Part shown: positions 5,248 to 34,794 of the stretch, in pieces
Layout of the letters: each line of letters opens with the position of its first letter
Numbering within the stretch: the stretch's first letter is position 1
Origin: Candidatus Doudnabacteria bacterium
Lineage (GTDB): Bacteria > Patescibacteriota > Doudnabacteria > UBA920 > VMFF01
Reading direction: 5' to 3'
Assembly: GCA_028286905.1 (NCBI GenBank)
Contig: JAQBQP010000002.1
Span: forward strand, 383,430-447,429
Length of the DNA: 64,000 bases
Notes under the pieces: model-generated
What the model saw: the letters and a program-made list of their open reading frames with translations, nothing else
The model's database searches: none
Told to the model about the DNA's origin: nothing
Translations under genes and position numbers: made by a program

Positions 5248-5634
5248 TTAATCCTTTGCTATTAAATCTCTTAAGTTTTCTAAGCTATTCCGTACTGAAG
5301 CGTCTATAAGTGTGTCATCGACTCTGACCACTACCCCGCCGATTATATTCTGATCGATCTTTTCTTTAACCTCGGTTTTATCGCCGACAATTTTATTTAG
5401 ATCTTTAATCAATTCTTTAGTATTTAAATGATGCGCGCTAGTAACTTCCACTTCCTTAATACCATGCGCTTTCGAATCAAGCTTCTGATACTCTTCGGCA
5501 ACTTGATCAAACATCCCAAGGTCACCGCGCTGCGCCATTATCTTTGCCATATTATCCAGTACTTTATCTTGATCTTCGGGGCGCACCTCATGGATCGCTT
5601 CGTATAAAGCCTGGGCGTATTGCTGTGCTTTCAT
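5248..5634 (-). CDS. atpH: F1Fo ATP synthase delta (OSCP) subunit, short form
   Basis: 128 aa located between atpF and atpA with a delta-like C-terminal domain. Confidence 0.75.
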   Translation of the reverse strand: MKAQQYAQALYEAIHEVRPEDQDKVLDNMAKIMAQRGDLGMFDQVAEEYQKLDSKAHGIKEVEVTSAHHLNTKELIKDLNKIVGDKTEVKEKIDQNIIGGVVVRVDDTLIDASVRNSLENLRDLIAKD

Positions 5635-5635
5635 A

Positions 5636-6136
5636 TTAGATATCCTTAAGGCTTTCTTTAATTAGCTGCTCGTCTCTTTTGGGATCAAGTTTTTCTCTTA
5701 AAATCTTTTCAGTCGCGGATACAATTAAGTTCGCAGCCTCTGTTCGAATGTCAGCCATTGCACGGCTTTTTTCGCCTTCGATTTCTTTCTTTGCTTGTTC
5801 TAACATCTTATCCGAGCTTACTTTTGCCTCAGCTAAAATCTGCTGTTTTACCAATTCGGCATTTTTTTGGGCTTGAGCGATTGCGGTATTTGCTTCTGCT
5901 CGTACTTTTTCCATTTCTGCTTGACGATATTTTTCAGCCTCTTTAAGCTTCTGTTCCACTTCTTCTGAATGCTTAATTGATAGTTCGATTTTACTGGTTC
6001 GCTCTTCTAGCTTTTTACCCAAAGGCTTGAAAACCCAGCGCCATAATACAAACAAAACAATAACAAAGTTAAACAACTGTGCTAAGAACAGCTTCCAATC
6101 TAAACCTAATAATGCTGTAACTGATTGATTTTCCAT
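5636..6136 (-). CDS. atpF: F1Fo ATP synthase subunit b
   Basis: 166 aa with an N-terminal transmembrane helix followed by a long charged coiled coil, at the expected operon position. Confidence 0.85.
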   Translation of the reverse strand: MENQSVTALLGLDWKLFLAQLFNFVIVLFVLWRWVFKPLGKKLEERTSKIELSIKHSEEVEQKLKEAEKYRQAEMEKVRAEANTAIAQAQKNAELVKQQILAEAKVSSDKMLEQAKKEIEGEKSRAMADIRTEAANLIVSATEKILREKLDPKRDEQLIKESLKDI

Positions 6137-6201
6137 AGTTCTCTATTAAATATATTCAAGCTCCAGGGCACGAGTGCCCAAGAGTCTGAACACATTCCCA
6201 A

Positions 6202-6450
<249 letters not shown>

Positions 6451-6521
6451 TTATTTGGTTTTATAGTTGGTGAGCTAATTCTTAGACTCATTAGATGAGT
6501 GTAAGATCTAGACCATCAAAA

Positions 6522-7361
6522 CTAATTATGTGCCGGTTCTAGATCGTGCCCATGTTTCTTCTTATCATTGTGACCATGGTCTGGCAATGGCATTGTTGCC
6601 ACAGAAATATAAACCAAGACCAACAATGAGAACACTGTGGCTTGAATTAAACCTACTAATAATTCCAAAGCAATAAACGGCAATGGCACAGCGTATGCAA
6701 TAATGCTGCCCAAAACTGTTAACAATACTTCGCCGGCAAAAACGTTACCAAATAATCGCAATGATAAAGAAAATAGCTTAGCTATTTCAGAAACAATTTC
6801 GATTAAACCGACGCCGAATTCTATAAAAGCTGTGAAAACAATCATAAAGTTCTTGCTTTTGAATGATTTTACGATATCACCAGCTTTAATAAACTTGTTG
6901 AAATATCTCCAAAAGCCAATCGTGCCTATCCCAATAACATGCGAGGCGATAACGCCAAATACTGCCATCGCAAGAGTTAAGTTCAAGTCAGTGTTTGCGC
7001 CTCGAAACAAAGGAATAAACTCTGCGCCGCGATGAATTCCGACCGAGCCAACCCCTGGCAGCAAGCCAATCCAGTTAGAAACAACAATAAATAAGAACAG
7101 CGTTCCAATTAAAGGCAAAAACTTTAAAGACTTTTTACGGTCGCCGGTAACCTGATCAAAATATGTAAGTAAAGTTTCAATAATAAATTCAAAAAAATTC
7201 TGAATCCCTGTCGGCACTTCTTTAATACTACGCTTTACAAAAAAAGCTAGGATTACAAAGAGAATTACAGTCAATGTTGAATTAATGTAAGTGTTTGTAA
7301 CACTGAAAGTTCCGATATTAAAAATGGATTCAGCCGCTAACGGCGGTAGTGCGTATAACAT
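6522..7361 (-). CDS. atpB: F1Fo ATP synthase subunit a
   Basis: 279 aa polytopic membrane protein carrying the conserved Arg helix (LSLRLFGN...). Confidence 0.9.
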   Translation of the reverse strand: MLYALPPLAAESIFNIGTFSVTNTYINSTLTVILFVILAFFVKRSIKEVPTGIQNFFEFIIETLLTYFDQVTGDRKKSLKFLPLIGTLFLFIVVSNWIGLLPGVGSVGIHRGAEFIPLFRGANTDLNLTLAMAVFGVIASHVIGIGTIGFWRYFNKFIKAGDIVKSFKSKNFMIVFTAFIEFGVGLIEIVSEIAKLFSLSLRLFGNVFAGEVLLTVLGSIIAYAVPLPFIALELLVGLIQATVFSLLVLVYISVATMPLPDHGHNDKKKHGHDLEPAHN

Positions 7362-7669
7362 TATTTGATTTCTTTCGGTTCGTTCTGAGTTTCTTTTTTT
7401 AACTGCGCTGCTTCGCGAAGCTTGTCAGCTAACGCTGCAAACCTTCTATATATTACAACACTAGTTAAAAGCACTGCGGCAATAATGCCAATAAATAGAA
7501 AGTAATTTGTATGCTCTTTCTGATCCAACCACTTTCCGCCTAACGCAAAGGCCACAATTGGCAAAGCGATAATAAAACCTAATTCGAAAGCAACACTAAG
7601 CACTTGCGCACTTTCTTTAGTGTAGCTTTTGTTGGGTTTTTGTTGGAGGTTTGGTATATTTTCAGACAT
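7361..7669 (-). CDS. AtpI/AtpZ-like small membrane protein at the head of the atp operon
   Basis: 102 aa with two transmembrane helices, immediately upstream of atpB in the same orientation. Confidence 0.55.
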   Translation of the reverse strand: MSENIPNLQQKPNKSYTKESAQVLSVAFELGFIIALPIVAFALGGKWLDQKEHTNYFLFIGIIAAVLLTSVVIYRRFAALADKLREAAQLKKETQNEPKEIK

Positions 7670-7813
7670 AAAGTAGCTTTTTTGAACAGAAATATTATAA
7701 AGGAAATAAGGGCTTTCTGCAAGCTTGGCTTTTTTAACTAGCCAAAAAATTATCTTATTGCTACTATGTTACCGATCATGAAGCACAGTCGCTTCCCGTC
7801 CAACGGAGGACCA

Positions 7814-8182
7814 ATGACAGAAGTGAAACTGCAAGACATCAATCTGAAGGCTTTTACGGGCGGCCAGTTCATTCGGACGTTCCACGGCCAGTTGCAAGGT
7901 AACATTCGTGAAATCGAGCTGATCAAACCCAAACGCGAGGGCGGACCGTTCCAGATCGATATCGAGTATGATTGGATCTTCGCACACGGTGATGGTACTC
8001 GGCGAGTCCAGCACCAACCCGGGCTGATCAGCGCGCTCTTGAGCCAGAACACGACCGTAACGCACGAAGTTGACCAGTCGGTTCGCATTCCGATGGTCGG
8101 CAACGGCGAACTGCTGTTGCTGCCGATCGAACACATCCGCGAGATTGACCCCAGTAACCAGCCGAACAGATCAGCTGCTTGA
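7814..8182 (+). CDS. Hypothetical protein in an anomalously GC-rich patch
   Basis: The 7766-8182 ORF has an internal Met at 7814 (MTEVKLQDINLKAF...). Local GC is about 56% against about 38% in the flanks, and an intrinsic terminator follows. Several overlapping ORFs on both strands are expected from GC-rich DNA, so the choice of strand is uncertain. Confidence 0.35.
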   Translation: MTEVKLQDINLKAFTGGQFIRTFHGQLQGNIREIELIKPKREGGPFQIDIEYDWIFAHGDGTRRVQHQPGLISALLSQNTTVTHEVDQSVRIPMVGNGELLLLPIEHIREIDPSNQPNRSAA

Positions 8183-8351: not shown

Positions 8352-9413
8352 TTACTTATACATCGTTTCGGAAACACCCAGTTTTGCCAAAATTGCAGCT
8401 TGATCTTTTGAATCCGTTACAATTTGTGGCTGCGAGTAATCATAAATCATTACGGGAGTAAACTCAATTTTTTCTAAACCTTCTTTATTGAATGTTGTTT
8501 TTGTAATAACGCTTTGTCTTGTTTCTAATGAGAACATTTGATCAAAAACAAAATTACCTAAACTGTATAAAATATATTTACCGTGATACTTTTCAACGGT
8601 CTGTAAAACATGCGGGTGATGCCCTAAAACCATTTCAGCGCCAGCATCGATTGCAGCATGATCAAAATCAATCTGATGTTGGTCCGGAGTTTTATATTCG
8701 ATTCCGGAGTGCAAGGAAACAATTACAATGTCAGCGTTTTGTTTAGCAGCTTTGACAGCAGTCTGCATTTTCGGAATATCTAACCGATTTGTACCAGGTT
8801 TATTTACCGTAGCAAAATAATTATCAGGAACGACATCAGGATCATTGTAACCAAGGAAAGCAAATTTTATTCCATTTTTTTCGATGTATACAGGCGCAGA
8901 AGCTTCAGCGCTATCTTTCCCGGCTCCGACATAATTAATGCCGGCCATTTTTAATAAACTGACGGTGTCGAGCATTCCTTTATTACCAAAGTTCATAGTG
9001 TGATTATTTGCCAACGAAACAATGTTAAACCCAGCATGCTGTAAACCAAGTTCATCTCCAGGATTCGCATGGAAGATCATTGAACCGGTAGGCACTGGCG
9101 GGCCAGCAGTTATAGGGCACTCTAAGTTCGCAAAGACTATATCTGCTTGGAGGTAAGGCTTAACTTTTTCAAAAGGGTAATCTACTCCATTTTCTTTTAT
9201 TTTTACTCCAACGTTTCGAGCAAGCATTATATCCCCCACTGCAACCAAAGTCGCTTCAGGTGGTGCTGGCGGTTTATTAATAGAAGGATTAGAAGCTTTT
9301 TCAAATGGCACCGGGTTCTGTGCTAAAAAGTCTGAGGTTCGATATATTGAAAACAGTGCGAAGCCAAGCACTACGAAAAAGAAAATTAAAATTGGAGCTA
9401 TAATTTTTTTCAT
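8352..9413 (-). CDS. CapA/PgsA-family poly-gamma-glutamate synthesis-type metallophosphatase, signal-anchored
   Basis: 353 aa with an N-terminal transmembrane helix and the CapA-family (PGA_cap) motifs GDIMLAR, NLEC and GHHPHV. Confidence 0.8.
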   Translation of the reverse strand: MKKIIAPILIFFFVVLGFALFSIYRTSDFLAQNPVPFEKASNPSINKPPAPPEATLVAVGDIMLARNVGVKIKENGVDYPFEKVKPYLQADIVFANLECPITAGPPVPTGSMIFHANPGDELGLQHAGFNIVSLANNHTMNFGNKGMLDTVSLLKMAGINYVGAGKDSAEASAPVYIEKNGIKFAFLGYNDPDVVPDNYFATVNKPGTNRLDIPKMQTAVKAAKQNADIVIVSLHSGIEYKTPDQHQIDFDHAAIDAGAEMVLGHHPHVLQTVEKYHGKYILYSLGNFVFDQMFSLETRQSVITKTTFNKEGLEKIEFTPVMIYDYSQPQIVTDSKDQAAILAKLGVSETMYK

Positions 9414-27913: not shown

Positions 27914-27988
27914 TGCCCGGTAGCCAAGTGGTAAGGCAGGGGCCTTTGAAGCCTCCATTCGCAGGTTCGATCCCTGCCCGGGCAGCCA
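27914..27988 (+). tRNA. tRNA-Gln (anticodon UUG)
   Basis: Cloverleaf TGCCCGG/CCGGGCA acceptor, anticodon arm GGGGC-CTTTGAA-GCCTC, T-arm GCAGG-TTCGATC-CCTGC, discriminator G, encoded CCA. Confidence 0.85.
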
Positions 27989-28099: not shown

Positions 28100-28126
28100 A
28101 AAGGGGTATATTAAGACAAAAAATAA

Positions 28127-29173
28127 ATGTCTCAAAAAATAAAAGCAGTAGATTTTTTTTGTTCTGGCGGAGGTATGACTTGTGGCCTAACCCAAGCAGG
28201 AATCGACGTCATTGCAGGAATCGATAATGACGCTACATGCGAAGAAACCTATAGTAAAAATAACCCGAACTCAAAATTCATTTTAGCGGATGTTTTTACA
28301 TTAAAGGAAAAAGAATTAGCTAAAAGATTGGGTCTTAAGAAGAACGATAAAAATTTAGTTCTCATAGGGTGTAGCCCTTGCCAATATTGGTCTATTATCC
28401 AAACAAATAAAACAAAATCCCAAAAATCCAAAAACTTGTTAATGGAATTTAAAAGATTTGTTGACTATTTCAATCCAGGTTATGTCTTAGTCGAAAATGT
28501 TCCTGGAATACTAGCAAAAAAAGAACAAAGCGGTTTAGCTAACTTTATCAAAGATCTTGAATCTAAGGGATATAAAGTTCATTTCGAAATTGTAAACATG
28601 AATGATTACGCTGTCCCTCAATCTCGCAAACGTTTTTCTTTAATCGCCAATAGGGTTTCAAAAAAGGCAATTTTCCCAAAACCCACTAAAGACAAGCGTC
28701 CTACGGTCGCAGATTTTATTGGTCAAAATAATGGATTTAAAAAGGTTAAGGTGGGTTTCAAAGATACAACACCCTTTAACCATAGTGTGGCAGGATTAAC
28801 CAAAAAAAATCTTTTGCGTTTGAGAAAAACGGAGAAAAACGGAGGTTCATGGTTAAGCTGGTCTAATGACAAAGAACTAAAACGAAAACTTTACCGCGGT
28901 AACGGTTTTATAGATAACTATGGTAGAATGTCTTGGGAAAAACCAGCTCCAACTATTACAACAAAATTTTTCAGCATCTCAAATGGCAGATTTGCTCATC
29001 CTGAAGAAGACAGAGCTCTTTCGATACGTGAAGGAGCTACTCTGCAAACCTTTCCTAAAACATATAATTTCTATTCAACTAGCATGACAAGCATCGCGCG
29101 AATGATAGGCAACGCGGTGCCTCCTGAATTTGCAAAAAAACTCGGAAGAACAATAATCGAAAATCATGAATAA
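28127..29173 (+). CDS. DNA (cytosine-5)-methyltransferase
   Basis: 348 aa with m5C methyltransferase motif I FCSGGGMTCGL, motif IV GCSPCQYWS (catalytic PC) and motif VI ENVPGI. Confidence 0.93.
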   Translation: MSQKIKAVDFFCSGGGMTCGLTQAGIDVIAGIDNDATCEETYSKNNPNSKFILADVFTLKEKELAKRLGLKKNDKNLVLIGCSPCQYWSIIQTNKTKSQKSKNLLMEFKRFVDYFNPGYVLVENVPGILAKKEQSGLANFIKDLESKGYKVHFEIVNMNDYAVPQSRKRFSLIANRVSKKAIFPKPTKDKRPTVADFIGQNNGFKKVKVGFKDTTPFNHSVAGLTKKNLLRLRKTEKNGGSWLSWSNDKELKRKLYRGNGFIDNYGRMSWEKPAPTITTKFFSISNGRFAHPEEDRALSIREGATLQTFPKTYNFYSTSMTSIARMIGNAVPPEFAKKLGRTIIENHE

Positions 29174-30851
29174 AACAGAAAAACTTAAGATGACTTTTAC
29201 ACCCAATACCATTGAGCATTTGGGTGTACGGATGTACTCTACGCTACCTCCTGTTATAGCTGAGCTTATCGCTAATGCTCAGGATGCTGACGCTACTGGA
29301 GTTAAAATACACCTGAGCGATACTGCAGATAAAGAAATCGTCATCTCAGACGATGGTCACGGAATGTCGTTTGAAGATATAAATAGCAAATTTTTACGTA
29401 TTGGACGTAATCGCCGCAATGAAGAAGGTGGACAGACCTCACCAGGCGGTAGAAAAGTTATTGGTAAAAAAGGATTGGGTAAACTATCCTTTTTTGGTAT
29501 TGCTCATGAAATAGAGGTCCGCACCACACAAGATCACAAAAGGAACTCCTTTGTTATGCGATGGGAAGACATTCTTTCTGACGATGACCAAAGTAAACAA
29601 AAAGATTACTCTCCAGAGATTTTGGAAAAGGATGTAAAATCTTCCGATAAAGCTGGTACGACTATAATTTTAAGAAAAATAGAACGCGTTAGCGACTTTG
29701 ATGCGAATTCTCTTGCAGACAAGCTATCAAAGTTTTTTATTATAGACCCTGATTTTAATATTTACGTAAAACATAATAATGAGAAAACAATTTTAATAGA
29801 AAACGACCGTAAATATTCCAATCTTACCAAAGAAGTTGAATGGCAAGTACCTGCAGATATTGATTTAGAGTCAGATTACGAAAAACAATCAGAAATTAGA
29901 GGACACCTAATTGCTGCTGAAAAGCCAATTCCTCCTGCAACCAATATGAAAGGCATTACATTATTTTCACGCAAAAAACTAGTAAATAGTCCAGAATACT
30001 TCTCAGACAGTACTTCAAGCCATTTTTTTACGTACTTAACTGGTTGGCTTGAAGTAGATTTTATAGATGATCTTGGGGAAGATGTGATCGGCACCAACCG
30101 TCAATCTCTAAATTGGGAACATCCTGATATGGTGGCATTACGAGAATATTTACAAAAAATGTTACGTTGGCTAGAAACCGACTGGCGTAAAAAAAGAGCA
30201 AAAATAAAAGAAAAGAAATTTGATGAAGGAACAGGTTTAAAAATTGGTGAATGGAGGGAGCATATCCCAAAAAATATAAACGATAATTTGGATCCTATCA
30301 TAAACGCCTTAACACAAGATGCAGAGTTACCCGATAATGAAGCCATCGCGAGCTTGAAAGGTTTGCAAAATATAATTAAACCTTATCCTTATTTTCATTG
30401 GCAAAACCTACATCCCACTCTTCATAACTTAGTCTTTCCTTTTTACAAAAGTGAAGATTATTACAGAGCTGTCTCGGAAGGTGTAATCAAATATGTGAGA
30501 GAAATACAAAAAAAATCTACCAGCGGATTAAATGACTCCGCGTTAATTAAATTTGCCTTTGCCCCTGACCAGCCTCCACCTCCTGCCCCACAAGCTAATC
30601 CCGAATTATCTGTTACCAAAAAGTTTAAAAGACCTAACGGAACCAACTTCGAAAATGATACAATCTCAAACATTCGTAGGGGCCATGGTCTTCTTGCACA
30701 TGCCATGTGGTTAGCTTTTAGAAATCCTATCCACCATGAACTAACTTCTGATTTAAAAGATTCTGGGCTTTATACAGAACAAGATTGTTTAGATGCTTTA
30801 GGACTTCTTTCTCATCTTTTTAGACGTTTGGAAAACTCTGAGCTGACCTAA
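29166..30851 (+). CDS. GHKL (HATPase_c / MORC-like) ATPase with a C-terminal HEPN-like domain
   Basis: 561 aa. Bergerat-fold motifs are ELIANAQDA (N box), DDGHGM (G1) and GKKGLGKLS (G2). The C-terminal roughly 120 aa is all-alpha and carries RGHGLLAH and FRNPIHHE (Rx4-6H) motifs. The ATG at 29166 overlaps the methyltransferase stop (ATGAATAA), so the two genes are translationally coupled. Confidence 0.8.
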   Translation: MNKTEKLKMTFTPNTIEHLGVRMYSTLPPVIAELIANAQDADATGVKIHLSDTADKEIVISDDGHGMSFEDINSKFLRIGRNRRNEEGGQTSPGGRKVIGKKGLGKLSFFGIAHEIEVRTTQDHKRNSFVMRWEDILSDDDQSKQKDYSPEILEKDVKSSDKAGTTIILRKIERVSDFDANSLADKLSKFFIIDPDFNIYVKHNNEKTILIENDRKYSNLTKEVEWQVPADIDLESDYEKQSEIRGHLIAAEKPIPPATNMKGITLFSRKKLVNSPEYFSDSTSSHFFTYLTGWLEVDFIDDLGEDVIGTNRQSLNWEHPDMVALREYLQKMLRWLETDWRKKRAKIKEKKFDEGTGLKIGEWREHIPKNINDNLDPIINALTQDAELPDNEAIASLKGLQNIIKPYPYFHWQNLHPTLHNLVFPFYKSEDYYRAVSEGVIKYVREIQKKSTSGLNDSALIKFAFAPDQPPPPAPQANPELSVTKKFKRPNGTNFENDTISNIRRGHGLLAHAMWLAFRNPIHHELTSDLKDSGLYTEQDCLDALGLLSHLFRRLENSELT

Positions 30852-30862
30852 CCTATTCAAAG

Positions 30863-31513
30863 CTAGCGGGCAAACTCCCCCGCCCAAGTTCCCAAGTAAG
30901 GGCCATGACAGGTCACGCTAAAGTTTAAAGGTTTTTGAAACAAAGGATTAAAAGCAGTGCCGTCGGATTTATAGAAATTTCTTTGGGTGACCACCATTGT
31001 GTCATGCGTATCTTTTGGATTGGATTGCAACTCACTTGGGATATCAATGAAATCTAGATGTGACTTGTAGGAATCATTCAATGTTAAGTCGCAGTTAGCC
31101 CAGTCAAGAGAGTTTAAATTCTTTATAGTAAATACTGGCTGGTCATCAAATTCTGAACCCATAGCTTCCATTGCGGTAGTTCGAAGAACCTTTAGGTTCA
31201 TTATTTCTTGAGGCTGGGTCGTAGCTGAGTTTTCGCTAGGAGTATTTAGGAAATGGTCTTTGAGCATTGCATAAGTCATGAATGCAAAAGTTAGAATGAA
31301 AAATCCTACCAAGATTTTATTTTTTGTTTTACTTAAATCTATTGATTGCACCGGCTTATTCTCAGGCATTTTTTTGAGTCTTTCTGCCAGCGTAGAAACA
31401 CAAAGCCCCACGCTAGCTGGGCCGTGAAGCCCCATACCAGTTTCCCGGTATGGCTCGTAAAAGCGCTGAACGTGGGGTTCAGTATCTTTTACGAGTCTTT
31501 GTGCCATGCTCAT
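30863..31513 (-). CDS. Hypothetical single-pass membrane protein
   Basis: 216 aa: cytoplasmic N-terminus, one transmembrane helix (ILVGFFILTFAFMTYAML) and an extracytoplasmic domain; convergent with the GHKL gene. Confidence 0.5.
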   Translation of the reverse strand: MSMAQRLVKDTEPHVQRFYEPYRETGMGLHGPASVGLCVSTLAERLKKMPENKPVQSIDLSKTKNKILVGFFILTFAFMTYAMLKDHFLNTPSENSATTQPQEIMNLKVLRTTAMEAMGSEFDDQPVFTIKNLNSLDWANCDLTLNDSYKSHLDFIDIPSELQSNPKDTHDTMVVTQRNFYKSDGTAFNPLFQKPLNFSVTCHGPYLGTWAGEFAR

Positions 31514-31559
31514 ATTCCTATAAGTTTAGGCTTATTATTAAGTTGTTAATGTAATTATA

Positions 31560-32882
31560 CTACAAATTTTCCGCTATTGTAACACTGTTGTTTTCTACCT
31601 TTATTCGACCTTTTAACAAAGTTAGCAAGCTGCGCTTTTCATCATTGCTCCCATCCCTCAATATGTATTTTGCATAAGCTCTGGTATCTATACTATCTTG
31701 ATCTAAAGGTTTGTCAGTTAACTTTAGAATGTCCTTTCTAAATTTATTGTATCTAGCAATCTCTTCTTGAAATTTATGCCGTACTCCAAGTTCGTTAATA
31801 TCTATAATGTCTATTATCTTTAACAGACCGATAATAAGATTATCTTCTCTTATATATTTGTTATGGCATATAGCGCGTTTTCCTCTGGTGCAGCCATAGT
31901 AGATATAATGCGAAACGTTACCGTCTTTTAATTGTTTAAATTTTTCTTCCGCGGTAATTCCAGATCCACAAAGACCACAGATCATAAGTCTAGTAAATGC
32001 GAACTCTCTAGTTTGCCTTGGGGCATTATCTCTCTTCATCTGTTCTTGGGTAGCAAAAAACAGATCTTTAGATATTAAAGGTTCCTGTCTTCCAGAATAA
32101 AAATTACCACTCCCCTTTGGATACTCTAAAGTTCCGTAGTAGAAATGGTTTTGTAATATATTGTATACGTTTGAAAGAGATAAGTGCTTTCCATGGATTG
32201 ACCTAAAGTTTAATTCATCTTTTAACCAATGGTGAATTCTTCTGCCGCTTAATCCTTGGTTTGCATACCTTTCAAATATTTGTTTTATAACTCCTGCCCT
32301 ATCTGGGTCGATATTAACCTCGCATTTGTGATCTATTCTTTTTTCGTTTAAGTATCCGGTTGGCGCAGTTGCTGGCCACAATCCCATTTCAACTCTTGCT
32401 CTCATCCCTCTTTTTACATTTACACTCTTATTATCGTTTTCAAGCTTTGCTTGAGAACCCAGAATCATTAACAAAAATTTTTCATTCGGGTTATTTGTAA
32501 ACCTTTGGCTAAAAGTTCTAATTTCAACTAGCTTCTTTTGATCTAACAAATCTACAAGTGCTCCAAGGTCACCAGCATTTCTACTTAGTCTATCTGGGTG
32601 CCAGACAAGAATGCCACTGAACTTACCGCTTCTAATGTTTGTGAGAAGCTGGTTATATACCGGTCTTTGACCACAATCTTTGGCTGAGTGGGATTCCCTA
32701 TAAACCTCTGCCACAGTAAGGCCATTTCGGTCCGCTACGGCAAGCATTTCCTTTACCTGGGATTCTATTGAAAGTGCTTGCTTCTCCTCAGCTTCGCTCG
32801 ATTTTCGCGCATACAGGCAATACTGGATGGTATCAGCGACCAGTTCGGTTTGTGGGCTAATATATAAAGTCTTTTCTTGCAT
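31560..32882 (-). CDS. Large serine recombinase (resolvase/invertase catalytic domain, recombinase domain and zinc ribbon)
   Basis: N-terminal YARKSSEAEE catalytic-serine motif, recombinase domain, and zinc ribbon CGLCGS...YYGCTRGKRAICHN. The likely start is the Met at 32882 (MQEKTLYIS...) inside ORF 31560-33023. Confidence 0.88.
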   Translation of the reverse strand: MQEKTLYISPQTELVADTIQYCLYARKSSEAEEKQALSIESQVKEMLAVADRNGLTVAEVYRESHSAKDCGQRPVYNQLLTNIRSGKFSGILVWHPDRLSRNAGDLGALVDLLDQKKLVEIRTFSQRFTNNPNEKFLLMILGSQAKLENDNKSVNVKRGMRARVEMGLWPATAPTGYLNEKRIDHKCEVNIDPDRAGVIKQIFERYANQGLSGRRIHHWLKDELNFRSIHGKHLSLSNVYNILQNHFYYGTLEYPKGSGNFYSGRQEPLISKDLFFATQEQMKRDNAPRQTREFAFTRLMICGLCGSGITAEEKFKQLKDGNVSHYIYYGCTRGKRAICHNKYIREDNLIIGLLKIIDIIDINELGVRHKFQEEIARYNKFRKDILKLTDKPLDQDSIDTRAYAKYILRDGSNDEKRSLLTLLKGRIKVENNSVTIAENL

Positions 32883-32904
32883 ACACACATTAAGCCGCAC
32901 ACAA

Positions 32905-32944
32905 GGATATATAGCAAGCGGGGCTATAGTGGATAAATATAGAC
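32905..32944 (+). repeat. About 31 bp conserved site, copy 1 (TATATAGCAAGCGGGGCTATAGTGGATAAATAT), between the divergent recombinase and HEPN-like genes
   Basis: 29 of 31 positions identical to 41335-41370 on the same strand. Confidence 0.7.
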
Positions 32945-32986
32945 AAAAAACTCTCTGTTTTTGCTTATATTTGTTAAAATACTGCC

Positions 32987-33754
32987 ATGAAGATAAATCC
33001 ATATTTTCGGACAACGCTAGCAAAACCTTTCCAGGGTAAATTTTTACACGAAGCAGGTGCTGAGGTAATTCTAAATATTCCTATTAATTCAAAAACAATT
33101 GGAAACTTTATCATAATGCTTCCAGATCCAGTTTCTCTAAACTTAAATAATGCCCAAGCTTTTATAGATAAGTGGGTAAAACTAAAAGAACGCATCAATA
33201 AATCAAAAAACTTCACCGTTTACAGCAGCGCTCTTTCTGAGGATGACATATCGGGTAAAAGCCAAGAACAAATAAAACACTTGGATCCTAATGCAAATTT
33301 TTATAGAACCTTAGATGAGGAAAAAGTGTTTGAGTGTATACAAAGTAGTATAGGCGTGGTTATCTCCTTAATCACTGCTATGGAAGCCTTCGTTAATGTT
33401 GTCATTCCTCATGATTACATTTTGCAGAGGACTAATAAACGAAGTGAAAAAGAAAATCTAAATAAAGATTCTATTGTAAAAAAACTATCTATTTCGGAAA
33501 AGATAATTTTAATTGCAGATATAAAAGGCAAGGCGGACTTGAAAGAACAAGTATTCTGGTCAACTTTTCACGAAGTAAAAAAATTGAGAAATGATATTAT
33601 TCATTTCAAAAAAACTGACGCTAACATAAATAATATGTGGGCTCCTATAATTATCGGTTTCCTAGATTCCGATTTACAGAAATTTTTTGATCACTTCGTA
33701 ATTATGATTGATTATCTTCACTCTGGTTATTTAGATACTAAAACTAATATCTAG
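32987..33754 (+). CDS. HEPN-like (Abi-type) hypothetical protein
   Basis: 255 aa, predicted all-alpha, with an Rx4H motif KKLRNDIIHFK near the C-terminus; divergent from the recombinase. The start may instead be the internal Met at about 33114. Confidence 0.5.
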   Translation: MKINPYFRTTLAKPFQGKFLHEAGAEVILNIPINSKTIGNFIIMLPDPVSLNLNNAQAFIDKWVKLKERINKSKNFTVYSSALSEDDISGKSQEQIKHLDPNANFYRTLDEEKVFECIQSSIGVVISLITAMEAFVNVVIPHDYILQRTNKRSEKENLNKDSIVKKLSISEKIILIADIKGKADLKEQVFWSTFHEVKKLRNDIIHFKKTDANINNMWAPIIIGFLDSDLQKFFDHFVIMIDYLHSGYLDTKTNI

Positions 33755-33759
33755 GGTTT

Positions 33760-34230
33760 CTAATCTAAATAACCCCCGTGCTTATCTCTAAAATCTTTGG
33801 GAATTAATTTATCAGCGCTTCTTAAAGACCTGTAGTGATAGACTACACCCATCACTATAACCACTGTGGTTATAGTGATGGTGAGCATCAAACTTATCTT
33901 CAATGGATAAACTACAGCCAAAGCTTGTCCTATAAAACCTAAGATTAAAAAAGTAAAACCAAAGTAACTACTTAGACGTGTTTCATGTTCGGAAGCTTTT
34001 GCGTACGGGTTTTCATCAAAAAAAGTATCTGCTTTTAACTTACTTACTCTTGAAGAAGTAATAATGATGCTTTTTACCAACCAAAAAGATCCATACACGT
34101 CTAATATTAAGCCTAGGAATGATATAGAATATTGTTTAGATATAATTTGAACTAAAGTACTCATAGCGAATCGTCGATTATACGGGCCGTTCTTCTTCAC
34201 TGAGATCTTATATTTTTTTCTGATGTTCAA
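33760..34230 (-). CDS. Hypothetical membrane protein (3-4 transmembrane helices)
   Basis: 156 aa hydrophobic ORF with no recognisable motif. Confidence 0.45.
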   Translation of the reverse strand: MNIRKKYKISVKKNGPYNRRFAMSTLVQIISKQYSISFLGLILDVYGSFWLVKSIIITSSRVSKLKADTFFDENPYAKASEHETRLSSYFGFTFLILGFIGQALAVVYPLKISLMLTITITTVVIVMGVVYHYRSLRSADKLIPKDFRDKHGGYLD

Positions 34231-34479: not shown

Positions 34480-34794
34480 TTAATCAAGAGTATTTTTCTT
34501 CACAAATACACCTTCTATCCCATCGTACAACATGTGTAATTTGCCGTCATTAGTTAGTTTTATTTTGGTTCGCTCTTCTCTCGGAGCCGAAGGTTGATTG
34601 GTTACCAAATAATCTCCTTCTATTTGATAAGTTAGAAAAATATACTGATTTTTATCACCTTCTGACGTGGAGTAGGTCAATTTGCCATCTGCTTGAAAGT
34701 TCATTGTCACATCACCAAATTTATTATAGGCTTTCTTATTATCGCCATCCGGTGCTAGTACCCATATACCAATAATTTGTGTTTGTGTATCCAT
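34480..34794 (-). CDS. Small protein immediately downstream of RHS-1; candidate cognate immunity protein
   Basis: 104 aa; its ATG lies 1 nt after the RHS-1 stop; predicted soluble beta-rich protein. Confidence 0.55.
   Translation of the reverse strand: MDTQTQIIGIWVLAPDGDNKKAYNKFGDVTMNFQADGKLTYSTSEGDKNQYIFLTYQIEGDYLVTNQPSAPREERTKIKLTNDGKLHMLYDGIEGVFVKKNTLD

Follow-up and report, generated by a model that had tools for sequence, protein, structure and literature searches.

A HEPN-like gene beside a large serine recombinase in a Doudnabacteria genome: a predicted conflict ribonuclease among putative tRNA-adjacent cassettes

Introduction

HEPN domains are recognized by an Rx4-6H motif with a polar residue (N, D or H) after the arginine, and by a second acidic residue, typically within Ex3[KR]; the HEPN domains without catalysis are those that have lost Rx4-6H (PMC3710099). 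The catalogue made in 2013 included HEPN genes in defence islands, HEPN cassettes of integrons and GHKL fusions of the Ymh-pMORC type, the Ymh family being fused to pMORC and occurring in restriction–modification (R-M) operons; DUF4145 is another HEPN family (Anantharaman et al. 2013, PMC3710099). Here we analyze a locus of a Candidatus Doudnabacteria genome in which the gene for a 255-aa HEPN-like protein, for which we use the label hep, stands head to head with the gene for a large serine recombinase. The whole stretch of DNA analyzed, 64 000 nt of contig JAQBQP010000002.1, is referred to as the window.

Integrase-borne islands at tRNA genes are classical. In the elements called tycheposons, successive integration at one tRNA gene pushes older elements or their remnants outward; a tyrosine recombinase is present in 474 of 501 tycheposons, and primases and helicases are among the replication genes illustrated (10.1101/2020.12.28.424599). 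In the literature we found nothing on HEPN genes combined with a serine recombinase or integrase, or on defence cassettes of this kind in Patescibacteria.

Results

Fold and conserved motif of the 255-aa protein

The first-pass annotation of the window, made from its letters alone, had paired a recombinase reading frame with a divergent 255-aa reading frame. Both are real; the product of the latter is JWO40_671 (100% identity). The AlphaFold2 model of hep, built from a 27-sequence alignment (pLDDT 88.6, pTM 0.83), has strands in residues 1-44 and four short ones at 76-79, 104-107, 146-149 and 155-158, so that the earlier description of an all-alpha protein has to be dropped. Its long helices (48-72, 111-139, 160-179, 189-205 and 214-244) form a bundle superposable on solved HEPN domains, with moderate fold scores; a HEPN-like fold, as had been proposed, is predicted for hep. 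The top Foldseek matches in the PDB were HepT toxins, all weak (E ≥ 0.06). Foldseek against viral structures (BFVD) returned nothing meaningful, and the hep profile compared with all PDB chains gave chance matches only (Prp31, BiP; E ≥ 0.08).

The motif KKLRNDIIHFK occupies residues 198-208 of 255, 47 residues short of the C-terminus; it does not end the protein, as had been stated. Both R201 and H206, the pair singled out earlier, are invariant in 27 close homologues (as LR[DN]xIIHFK), and so are E133, N137 and the segment PDPVSLN at 46-52. Among 70 distant representatives (∼20% identity) only K172, R201, H206 and K208 are invariant, with P46, E133, N137, I140, P141 and the start Met nearly so. 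The residue after the Arg is N202 in hep, and N or D in 27 of 27 close homologues and in the 13 distant relatives that were read; the consensus of the 70 distant representatives is LRN, this column having been checked as a consensus and not sequence by sequence. The second acidic position, near-invariant E133, has N137 at +4, i.e. E-x3-N rather than E-x3-[KR]. By our estimate, an RxxxxH pattern would occur by chance ∼0.2 times per protein of this size; its invariance across homologues argues that the R-x4-H of hep is more than chance.

Most of the sub-threshold profile matches, and every one common to more than one relative, were to HEPN models. For hep itself they included, among PADLOC models, DUF3644 (4e-4), CARF-HEPN (6e-4) and Cas13a; among the 70 relatives we counted RiboL-PSP (6/70), DUF3644 (3/70), Cthe_2314 and AbiV in Pfam, as well as RT-associated HEPN (12/70) and CARF-HEPN (5/70). 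Compared directly with RiboL-PSP (PF18735), DUF3644 (PF12358), AbiV (PF18728), HepT-like (PF01934) and Cthe_2314 (PF18730), hep gave no match at E ≤ 0.1; the best of its relatives reached E 3.5e-4 (∼20 bits) with the named HEPN families of Pfam, under cut-offs of 27-28 bits. Comparison with the Abi, Swt1 and LsoA-like families, which the first-pass annotation had put forward, likewise gave no match, and hep fits none of the named HEPN families. Its only clear family match is phrog_17113, a family with no functional annotation (E 2.3e-16 over residues 113-217; 2e-41 and 8e-29 for distant relatives). We conclude that hep very probably belongs to the HEPN superfamily and retains the catalytic signature intact; its family is named in no curated library. 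From the earlier designation ‘HEPN effector’ the fold and the motif thus stand, with the effector or toxic role being conjectural.

Size and distribution of the hep family

The search for close homologues covered 5.8 billion clusters and yielded 27 proteins of similar length (43-63% identity), all from Patescibacteria or unnamed metagenome contigs. A HMMER profile search of 1.84 billion representatives gave 757 proteins at E ≤ 1e-3 (clusters at 50% identity) and 190 at E ≤ 1e-10; the part common to these relatives is mostly residues 100-250, with N-terminal regions that vary over a conserved C-terminal core. A repeated search with the 70-sequence alignment, limited by the word index of the search, added no new relatives. 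Cluster look-ups returned ‘hypothetical protein’ annotations only.

Among 72 556 plasmids, two carry a member of the family, in both cases annotated as a hypothetical protein: Acinetobacter pittii pA2584 (8.2 kb, with the OXA-72 carbapenemase; hep relative at 5542-6372 of the record, profile E 2e-70) and the 133-kb Priestia megaterium pBP01R2b (E 6e-62), where the relative lies beside PIN-like and DUF3800 genes. No serine recombinase was seen among the annotated genes displayed around these distant relatives.

One could suppose that hep is a HEPN-like bundle that is catalytically inert or binds a ligand, with a regulatory or housekeeping function and an incidental position in mobile DNA. Its fold scores are moderate, no family threshold is passed, and at two loci (L007 and L010; the loci of homologues are numbered L001 to L030) hep lies among housekeeping genes. 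Even there, however, it directly follows a tRNA gene and the conserved cassette-end sequence; the patchy spread, 27 close homologues in the 5.8 billion clusters, is unlike that of a housekeeping gene; and Rx4-6H, which is lost in non-catalytic HEPN domains (PMC3710099), is invariant here at 20% identity. We consider an inert bundle quite improbable.

Recombinases and tRNA genes around hep

The 22 loci with close hep homologues reduce to 14 informative distinct contexts, the window included. A recombinase of the same clade as that of the window, or its remnant, accompanies hep in eight of the 14 (the window and seven others), the full-length ones being 54-59% identical to the window's. In all seven contexts outside the window the recombinase lies downstream of hep and is convergent with it. 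It is directly adjacent in L005/6, L014 and L021, with stop codons overlapping or abutting; a fragment follows hep at the contig end in L020; in L001 the distance is 1.9 kb, with four genes between, one of them HepT-like; and in L013 and L015 a truncated C-terminal remnant is left next to an intact hep. The six contexts with no recombinase are the L002 group, the L007 group, L010, L012, L016 and L018 (a convergent 183-aa open reading frame (ORF) in L018 was checked and is not a recombinase). In L007, L010, L012 and L016 hep is full length; its persistence where the recombinase is truncated or absent argues for selection independent of recombination.

Six contexts have a tRNA gene immediately 5′ of hep, in the same orientation: tRNA-Ser in L001, L007, L010, L013 and L014, tRNA-Glu in L012. 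In L005, L016 and L021 we found a degenerate tRNA 3′ fragment followed by the conserved CTCTCCGCCAAGACAATTTAGTATCGG. The 3′-end of the tRNA-Ser of L013 recurs 3.3 kb away (∼17 nt by reading; a 16-nt pattern with one mismatch); between the two copies lie hep, the remnant of the recombinase and five small ORFs. Generic searches for repeats, made in five related loci, gave no convincing att repeats. Ahead of hep, most loci have a terminator-like hairpin with compensatory stem changes and then TGnTAWAAT, a few bases from the ATG; the hairpin of the window is weak, and TGTTAAAAT is present at 32972-32980. This arrangement suggests for hep a promoter of its own and an mRNA with almost no leader.

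From this survey the canonical unit appears to be a tRNA gene, hep, a convergent recombinase and then the distal junction. In its minimal form (L014: tRNA-Ser, hep, recombinase, then a host glycosyltransferase gene) it takes ∼2.3 kb. The divergent pairing to which the first-pass annotation drew attention does exist in the window, and the link between the two families recurs in the eight contexts named; as a layout it is not conserved, being found in the window alone, with hep and recombinase convergent, or the recombinase missing, elsewhere.

The nearest structural matches of hep are HepT toxins of HEPN-MNT pairs, and hep outlives its recombinase, as expected of a gene that is hard to lose. 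These facts could be explained if hep were an addiction toxin that stabilizes the cassette by post-segregational killing, rather than an anti-phage gene, the antitoxin being a host factor, a small RNA or the N-terminal region of hep itself. In L012 hep is followed by a gene for a 271-aa Pol-beta/NTP_transf_2 nucleotidyltransferase (6139-6954, forward strand), an MNT-like protein of the class that neutralizes HepT toxins, and in L001 by the HepT-like gene (8774-9298, forward strand). Across the 14 contexts, however, no neighbour of hep is conserved, and an NTP_transf_2/Polbeta neighbour occurs only in L012 among the loci scanned (the neighbours in L016 and L018 were partly scanned); in the window, the genes on either side of hep, the recombinase and a 156-aa ORF, have no nucleotidyltransferase match. 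Downstream, the stop codons of hep and the recombinase overlap, so that no further gene would fit, and the upstream side is taken by the tRNA gene. An addiction function is, in our judgement, distinctly unlikely.

Two of the loci have further features. In L001, tRNA-Ser genes stand back to back (7630-7715, reverse strand; 7795-7882, forward strand); the one proximal to hep was called with the unusual anticodon ACT, and may be a hybrid or mutated copy from an integration junction. In L002, L003 and L017 the ∼16 kb around hep have a prophage-type look within a Patescibacteria contig, with no recombinase within 8 kb; the region has LexA/S24 repressor-like, SLFN/AlbA_2, N6/N4 methylase, HTH_Tnp_1_2 and reverse transcriptase genes and, beside HTH_Tnp_1_2, a 500-aa ORF that is possibly terminase-like, with hep in the middle. 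Fragments of gene families of this region recur in L001 and L005.

The recombinase clade and its cargo

The recombinase of the window has Resolvase (PF00239, 7e-25), Recombinase (PF07508, 2e-13) and Zn_ribbon_recom (PF13408, 9e-7) domains, all above cut-off, and matches the integrase family phrog_95 (7e-68); it is CcrB/XisF-like at scores under the NCBIfam cut-offs (CcrB 114, with 900 required). The zinc-ribbon domain named by the first-pass annotation is therefore there, and the catalytic Ser that it placed in YARKSS, S28 in YCLYARKSSE, aligns with YCLYARKSTE, or YCLYARKS[ST]E, in homologues. The ORF as listed (31560-33023, reverse strand) begins at a TTG (33023). Since homologues have only ∼20-50 residues before YCLYARKS, the start is likely M48 (32882); with this start the gene does not overlap hep, and a 104-bp spacer separates the two.

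The clade is abundant: at E ≤ 1e-60 it numbers at least 8000 members, dozens of them ∼60% identical to the window's recombinase, versus 27 close hep proteins. We examined six of its closest homologues (L025-L030, 63-72% identity). No hep relative was found in L025-L029 by family profile or BLAST, nor among the called genes of L030. Five of the six carry OLD-like, R-M, DUF4145 or helicase cargo downstream of the recombinase: (i) an OLD-like ATPase/TOPRIM nuclease in L025; (ii) an HTH_17 gene and a 1591-aa AAA_11/12 helicase in L026; (iii) an N6/N4 methylase, a DpnII endonuclease and a DUF4145 protein in L027; (iv) HTH_17, a methylase, a ResIII helicase and an OLD-like protein in L028; (v) a PLD-SNF2 helicase and an MmeI-like enzyme in L030. 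The closest homologue, L029 (72%), is on a short contig with no recognizable downstream cargo; the gene divergent from it is not hep-like.

The very tight linkage in the two-gene minimal units (L005, L014 and L021), where stop codons overlap, might be taken to mean that hep is an accessory of the recombinase, i.e. a recombination directionality factor or a regulator of att sites or expression, and not a nuclease. Known directionality factors of serine integrases are mutually unrelated, and the fold of hep therefore does not exclude such a role. It is made unlikely by the persistence of hep after recombinase decay (intact with no recombinase in six contexts and with a truncated one in two) and by the asymmetry in family size, the six nearest recombinases examined being without hep. 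Moreover, no serine recombinase appears among the displayed neighbours of the plasmid-borne relatives, and the invariant residues are the catalytic signature of HEPN ribonucleases (RNases). We regard an accessory function as highly improbable.

A proposed tandem of cassettes at one tRNA gene

The cargo of L027 ends at a tRNA-Gln(TTG) gene that differs from that of the window by one mismatch (74/75 by our own count), the flanks of the two loci diverging immediately past the tRNA 3′-end; at its other end, a host NDK gene directly adjoins the recombinase upstream. The window is organized in this way too: cargo (methylase, GHKL-Ymh, 168-aa ORF, LOOT RNA) follows the tRNA-Gln, with the recombinase at the distal end. 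By this comparison the recombinase of the window would belong, with the tRNA-Gln, methylase, GHKL-Ymh, 168-aa and LOOT genes, to a cassette other than that of hep. We suggest that hep was once next to the tRNA-Gln, with a recombinase of its own since lost, and that the R-M-like cassette then integrated at the same tRNA-side site, pushing hep outward and bringing the recombinase head to head with it. This model of tandem insertion, including the proposed order of events, seems to us slightly more probable than the alternatives to it taken together.

The spacer between the two genes contains GTGGATAA, which reads TTATCCAC on the recombinase strand (32929-32936), and TAGACAA at 32940-32946. On that strand the block TTATCCAC ... 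CTTGCTAT ... ATGTGTGTATG is homologous to other recombinase loci; TTATCCAC lies ∼50 nt upstream of the recombinase start in five (the window, L025, L026, L028 and L029), its form in L026 being TTATCCACA, which we take to be the DnaA-box consensus. A TTGTCTA element is common to the window, L021 and L027. The conserved TTATCCAC could have a regulatory role or, as an att arm, be bound by the recombinase.

In exactly the two spacers predicted to hold the junctions of the R-M-like cassette we found the copies of a 20-nt imperfect direct repeat, GG[GA]TA[TA]AT..AGACAAAAAA (28104-28123 and 32931-32950). Their 16/20 identity was reached by three of 300 shuffles restricted to these spacers. The copies are suggestive of attL and attR, for which they are candidates; in L027 an analogous 9-mer, TCTCGGTCT, is present at both junctions. 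A duplicated 3′-end of the tRNA-Gln was searched for in the window and none was found.

Alternatively, hep and the recombinase could be parts of one element, with the spacer as an attP-type junction of its circular form, or with hep as upstream cargo of the same cassette. Circularization of the minimal hep-recombinase unit (L014, L021, L005) would indeed juxtapose both 5′-ends as in the window, the spacer holds the conserved recombinase-upstream block along with the conserved hep promoter block, and hep co-occurs with the clade in the eight contexts of 14. On the other hand, canonical loci have a tRNA 3′-end fragment and the AAGACAATTTAGTATCGG motif as marks of the hep-side end, and the spacer contains neither; the homologous cassette of L027 stops just upstream of the recombinase, at the host NDK gene; the closest recombinase homologue (L029) has an unrelated gene in the divergent position; and the 20-nt repeat encloses the methylase through the recombinase, leaving hep outside. 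A single element is thus an unlikely, though not far-fetched, explanation.

Other features of the window

Coordinates are given in Table 1. The methylase and GHKL-Ymh genes overlap by 8 nt, the stop codon of the methylase lying inside the overlap. Residues 8-382 of the GHKL protein match NF050001 (BbrUII/HgiDII restriction enzymes; 2.4e-69, 234 bits, below cut-off), and a Ymh HEPN domain takes the place of the usual C-terminal 260 residues of that family. The pair looks like an R-M-like system with its effector domain swapped for a predicted RNase domain. The GHKL-HEPN fusion noticed earlier near hep is accordingly present, 2 kb away, and with the C5 methylase it agrees with the defence-type neighbourhood that had been claimed.

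The 168-aa protein probably starts at M49 of the 216-aa ORF listed, since the first 48 codons overlap the LOOT RNA; it had no match in Pfam, NCBIfam or PHROG profile scans, and a hydrophobic stretch at its N-terminus is, by eye, a possible membrane segment. The LOOT RNA begins 27 nt past the stop codon of the recombinase gene; there is a promoter-like sequence for it, GTTACA-18-TATAAT (31583-31554), and it is followed by a possible hairpin and a U-rich tract (by eye). A second copy in L002 (554-668, forward strand) lies just past a reverse transcriptase of the diversity-generating-retroelement type in the prophage-like locus, so at both sites found LOOT is amid mobile-element genes. The idea of a recombinase-linked RNA was rejected: LOOT is absent from L001, L005/6, L014 and L021 and present in L002, which has no recombinase.

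Beyond hep, the 156-aa ORF includes a perfect 16-nt inverted repeat (CCATCACTATAACCAC / GTGGTTATAGTGATGG, 1-nt spacer, 33849-33881). The 104-aa ORF could be the immunity gene of the RHS/YD-like 2149-aa ORF that it directly follows. The segment 54000-58000 has a G+C content of 0.48-0.54, versus ∼0.39 elsewhere; no rRNA lies in it. One of its products, of 664 aa, combines sigma-70 regions 2 and 4, both within the initial 200 residues, with a long extension that has no annotation; a 362-aa ORF of the segment gave no match.

Table 1. Positions of the features discussed, in window coordinates
Feature	Positions	Strand	Evidence and remarks
tRNA-Gln(TTG)	27914-27988	+	ARAGORN, Rfam
GGGTATATTAAGACAAAAAA, left copy of 20-nt imperfect direct repeat (family D1)	28104-28123	+	candidate att junction; 16/20 identical to 32931-32950
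C-5 cytosine DNA methyltransferase, cassette cargo	28127-29173	+	PF00145 1.4e-58; PADLOC MTase_II 1.7e-93
GHKL ATPase (BbrUII/HgiDII-like N-terminal 380 aa) with C-terminal Ymh-family HEPN	29166-30851	+	HATPase_c_3 3e-22; Hypoth_Ymh 6e-12; PADLOC REase_II; phrog_6203
168-aa protein, small ORF	30863-31369	-	no family match
LOOT RNA (RF03000), structured small RNA	31419-31532	-	75.7 bits, gathering score 46.4
Large serine recombinase, 440 aa	31560-32882	-	Resolvase, Recombinase, Zn_ribbon_recom domains; predicted nucleophile S28 (codon 32799-32801)
104-bp spacer between recombinase and hep	32883-32986	.	recombinase-upstream block, right repeat copy, weak hairpin and TGTTAAAAT
Right copy of 20-nt repeat, inside spacer	32931-32950		
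255-aa protein (hep)	32987-33754	+	beta-rich N-terminal part (1-45), then helical HEPN-like core
E133-x3-N137 (ESFVN)	33383-33397	+	nearly invariant; second conserved acidic position
R201-N-D-I-I-H206 (R-x4-H motif)	33587-33604	+	both residues invariant
156-aa ORF, convergent with hep	downstream of hep	-	
104-aa ORF directly after 2149-aa ORF	34480-34794	-	weak sub-threshold lipocalin-like match
Giant ORF, 2149 aa	34796-41245	-	RHS/YD-repeat toxin-like (by eye)
Giant ORF, 2422 aa	42156-49424	-	

Discussion

We propose that hep is a stand-alone member of the HEPN superfamily that would act as a metal-independent endoribonuclease. By analogy with solved HEPN RNases it may be dimeric, its active site being made up of R201 and H206, and the variable N-terminal part, beta-rich in the clade of hep, may sense a signal or restrain the activity. 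The invariance of the catalytic signature argues for such an endoribonuclease. A role in conflict, be it defence of the abortive-infection type or retention of the carrying DNA, is made plausible by several observations: N-terminal regions vary over a conserved C-terminal core; hep appears to ride cassettes, and its distant relatives ride plasmids; the slot of hep is also used by R-M, OLD-like, HepT-like and DUF4145 cargo; and hep stays intact after decay of the recombinase. The family would then be a recurrent cargo of small tRNA-targeting cassettes moved by one abundant Patescibacteria recombinase clade. For the account as a whole, a conflict RNase gene of the HEPN type beside whose older tRNA-adjacent copy an R-M cassette was inserted, our confidence stays tentative, somewhat below an even chance.

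Several results weigh against this account. The Foldseek E-values of hep are not significant, and it passes no Pfam, NCBIfam or PADLOC model at threshold; hhalign of its profile with the Ymh HEPN domain of the window aligned the 12-residue motif alone, at a probability of 0.15, and for that reason is not counted as evidence. The junction repeat, identified post hoc, is short and has weak statistical support, and a search of the window downstream of hep for a recombinase remnant found none. Beside hep there is no conserved antitoxin or immunity gene and no conserved partner that could be a sensor, which leaves unexplained how a constitutively promoted RNase stays harmless. Finally, a tblastn search of 50 697 phage records with hep and three of its distant relatives as queries, together with a scan of IMG/VR, gave no match; a direct phage origin is for this reason unsupported despite the match to phrog_17113.

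The window locus itself is a fairly ordinary, uncharacterized piece of a defence island, as its recombinase belongs to a large clade that appears to move small defence cassettes into tRNA genes. Nor are current ideas overturned: HEPN genes, GHKL-Ymh fusions in R-M operons and integrase-borne defence islands at tRNA genes are already established. What is new is an unannotated HEPN family and one Patescibacteria serine recombinase clade that, as the loci indicate, has repeatedly taken defence-type cargo to tRNA genes. The superfamily gains a well-supported family of ∼757 clusters at 50% identity that has no Pfam model and is represented in PHROG only; its predicted catalytic residues are clear and directly mutable. 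A simple vehicle for defence genes in bacteria of the candidate phyla radiation is also indicated, in the form of tRNA-aimed serine-recombinase cassettes. One could speculate further that an undescribed system of minimal cassettes (2-6 kb, recombinase plus cargo; 2.3 kb in the smallest form) stacks at tRNA genes and shuttles defence genes among the reduced genomes of Patescibacteria. We see this as a possibility, still a doubtful one; if it is true, the 2.3-kb unit has a HEPN RNase as its sole cargo, and this RNase may protect the host or keep the element from being lost.

Among the known systems close to hep are the stand-alone conflict HEPN families (DUF3644/EC042_2821-like, RiboL-PSP, AbiV and the RT- and CARF-associated families), with which hep shares the helical bundle, an invariant R-[ND]-x3-H, a conserved acidic residue in an earlier helix, a place on mobile DNA and beside R-M genes, and variable N-termini over a conserved C-terminal core. 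It differs from them in reaching no curated cut-off (best E ∼3e-4) and in having E-x3-N in place of E-x3-[KR]; the beta-rich N-terminal 45 residues and the conserved P-[DN]-x-V-S-L of its clade are tied by the comparisons made to no described HEPN family. HepT (DUF86; SO_3166, PDB 5yep) is 13% identical to hep, which does not match PF01934; HepT has ∼130 aa and is paired with an AMPylating MNT antitoxin, whereas hep has 255 aa and no adjacent MNT in the window or in 13 of the 14 contexts.

The recombinase shares with the large serine recombinases of phrog_95, CcrB of SCCmec and XisF a Resolvase catalytic domain with Y-x-R-x-S-[ST], a recombinase domain and a zinc ribbon, yet is far beneath the NCBIfam equivalog cut-offs for CcrB and XisF. 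HEPN genes of integron cassettes and those linked to prophages or R-M systems (PMC3710099) are, like hep, single HEPN genes carried as cargo of a mobile recombination system; integrons use a tyrosine integrase and attC sites, whereas the predicted carrier of hep is a tRNA-aimed cassette with a large serine recombinase. The tycheposons (10.1101/2020.12.28.424599) differ from the cassettes described here, which belong to Patescibacteria, have a large serine recombinase and show no replication module in the loci examined. They are alike in being small cargo elements 3′ of specific tRNA genes, in combining related integrases with different cargo at the same tRNA, and in the stacking and decay that leave fragments beside the tRNA gene.

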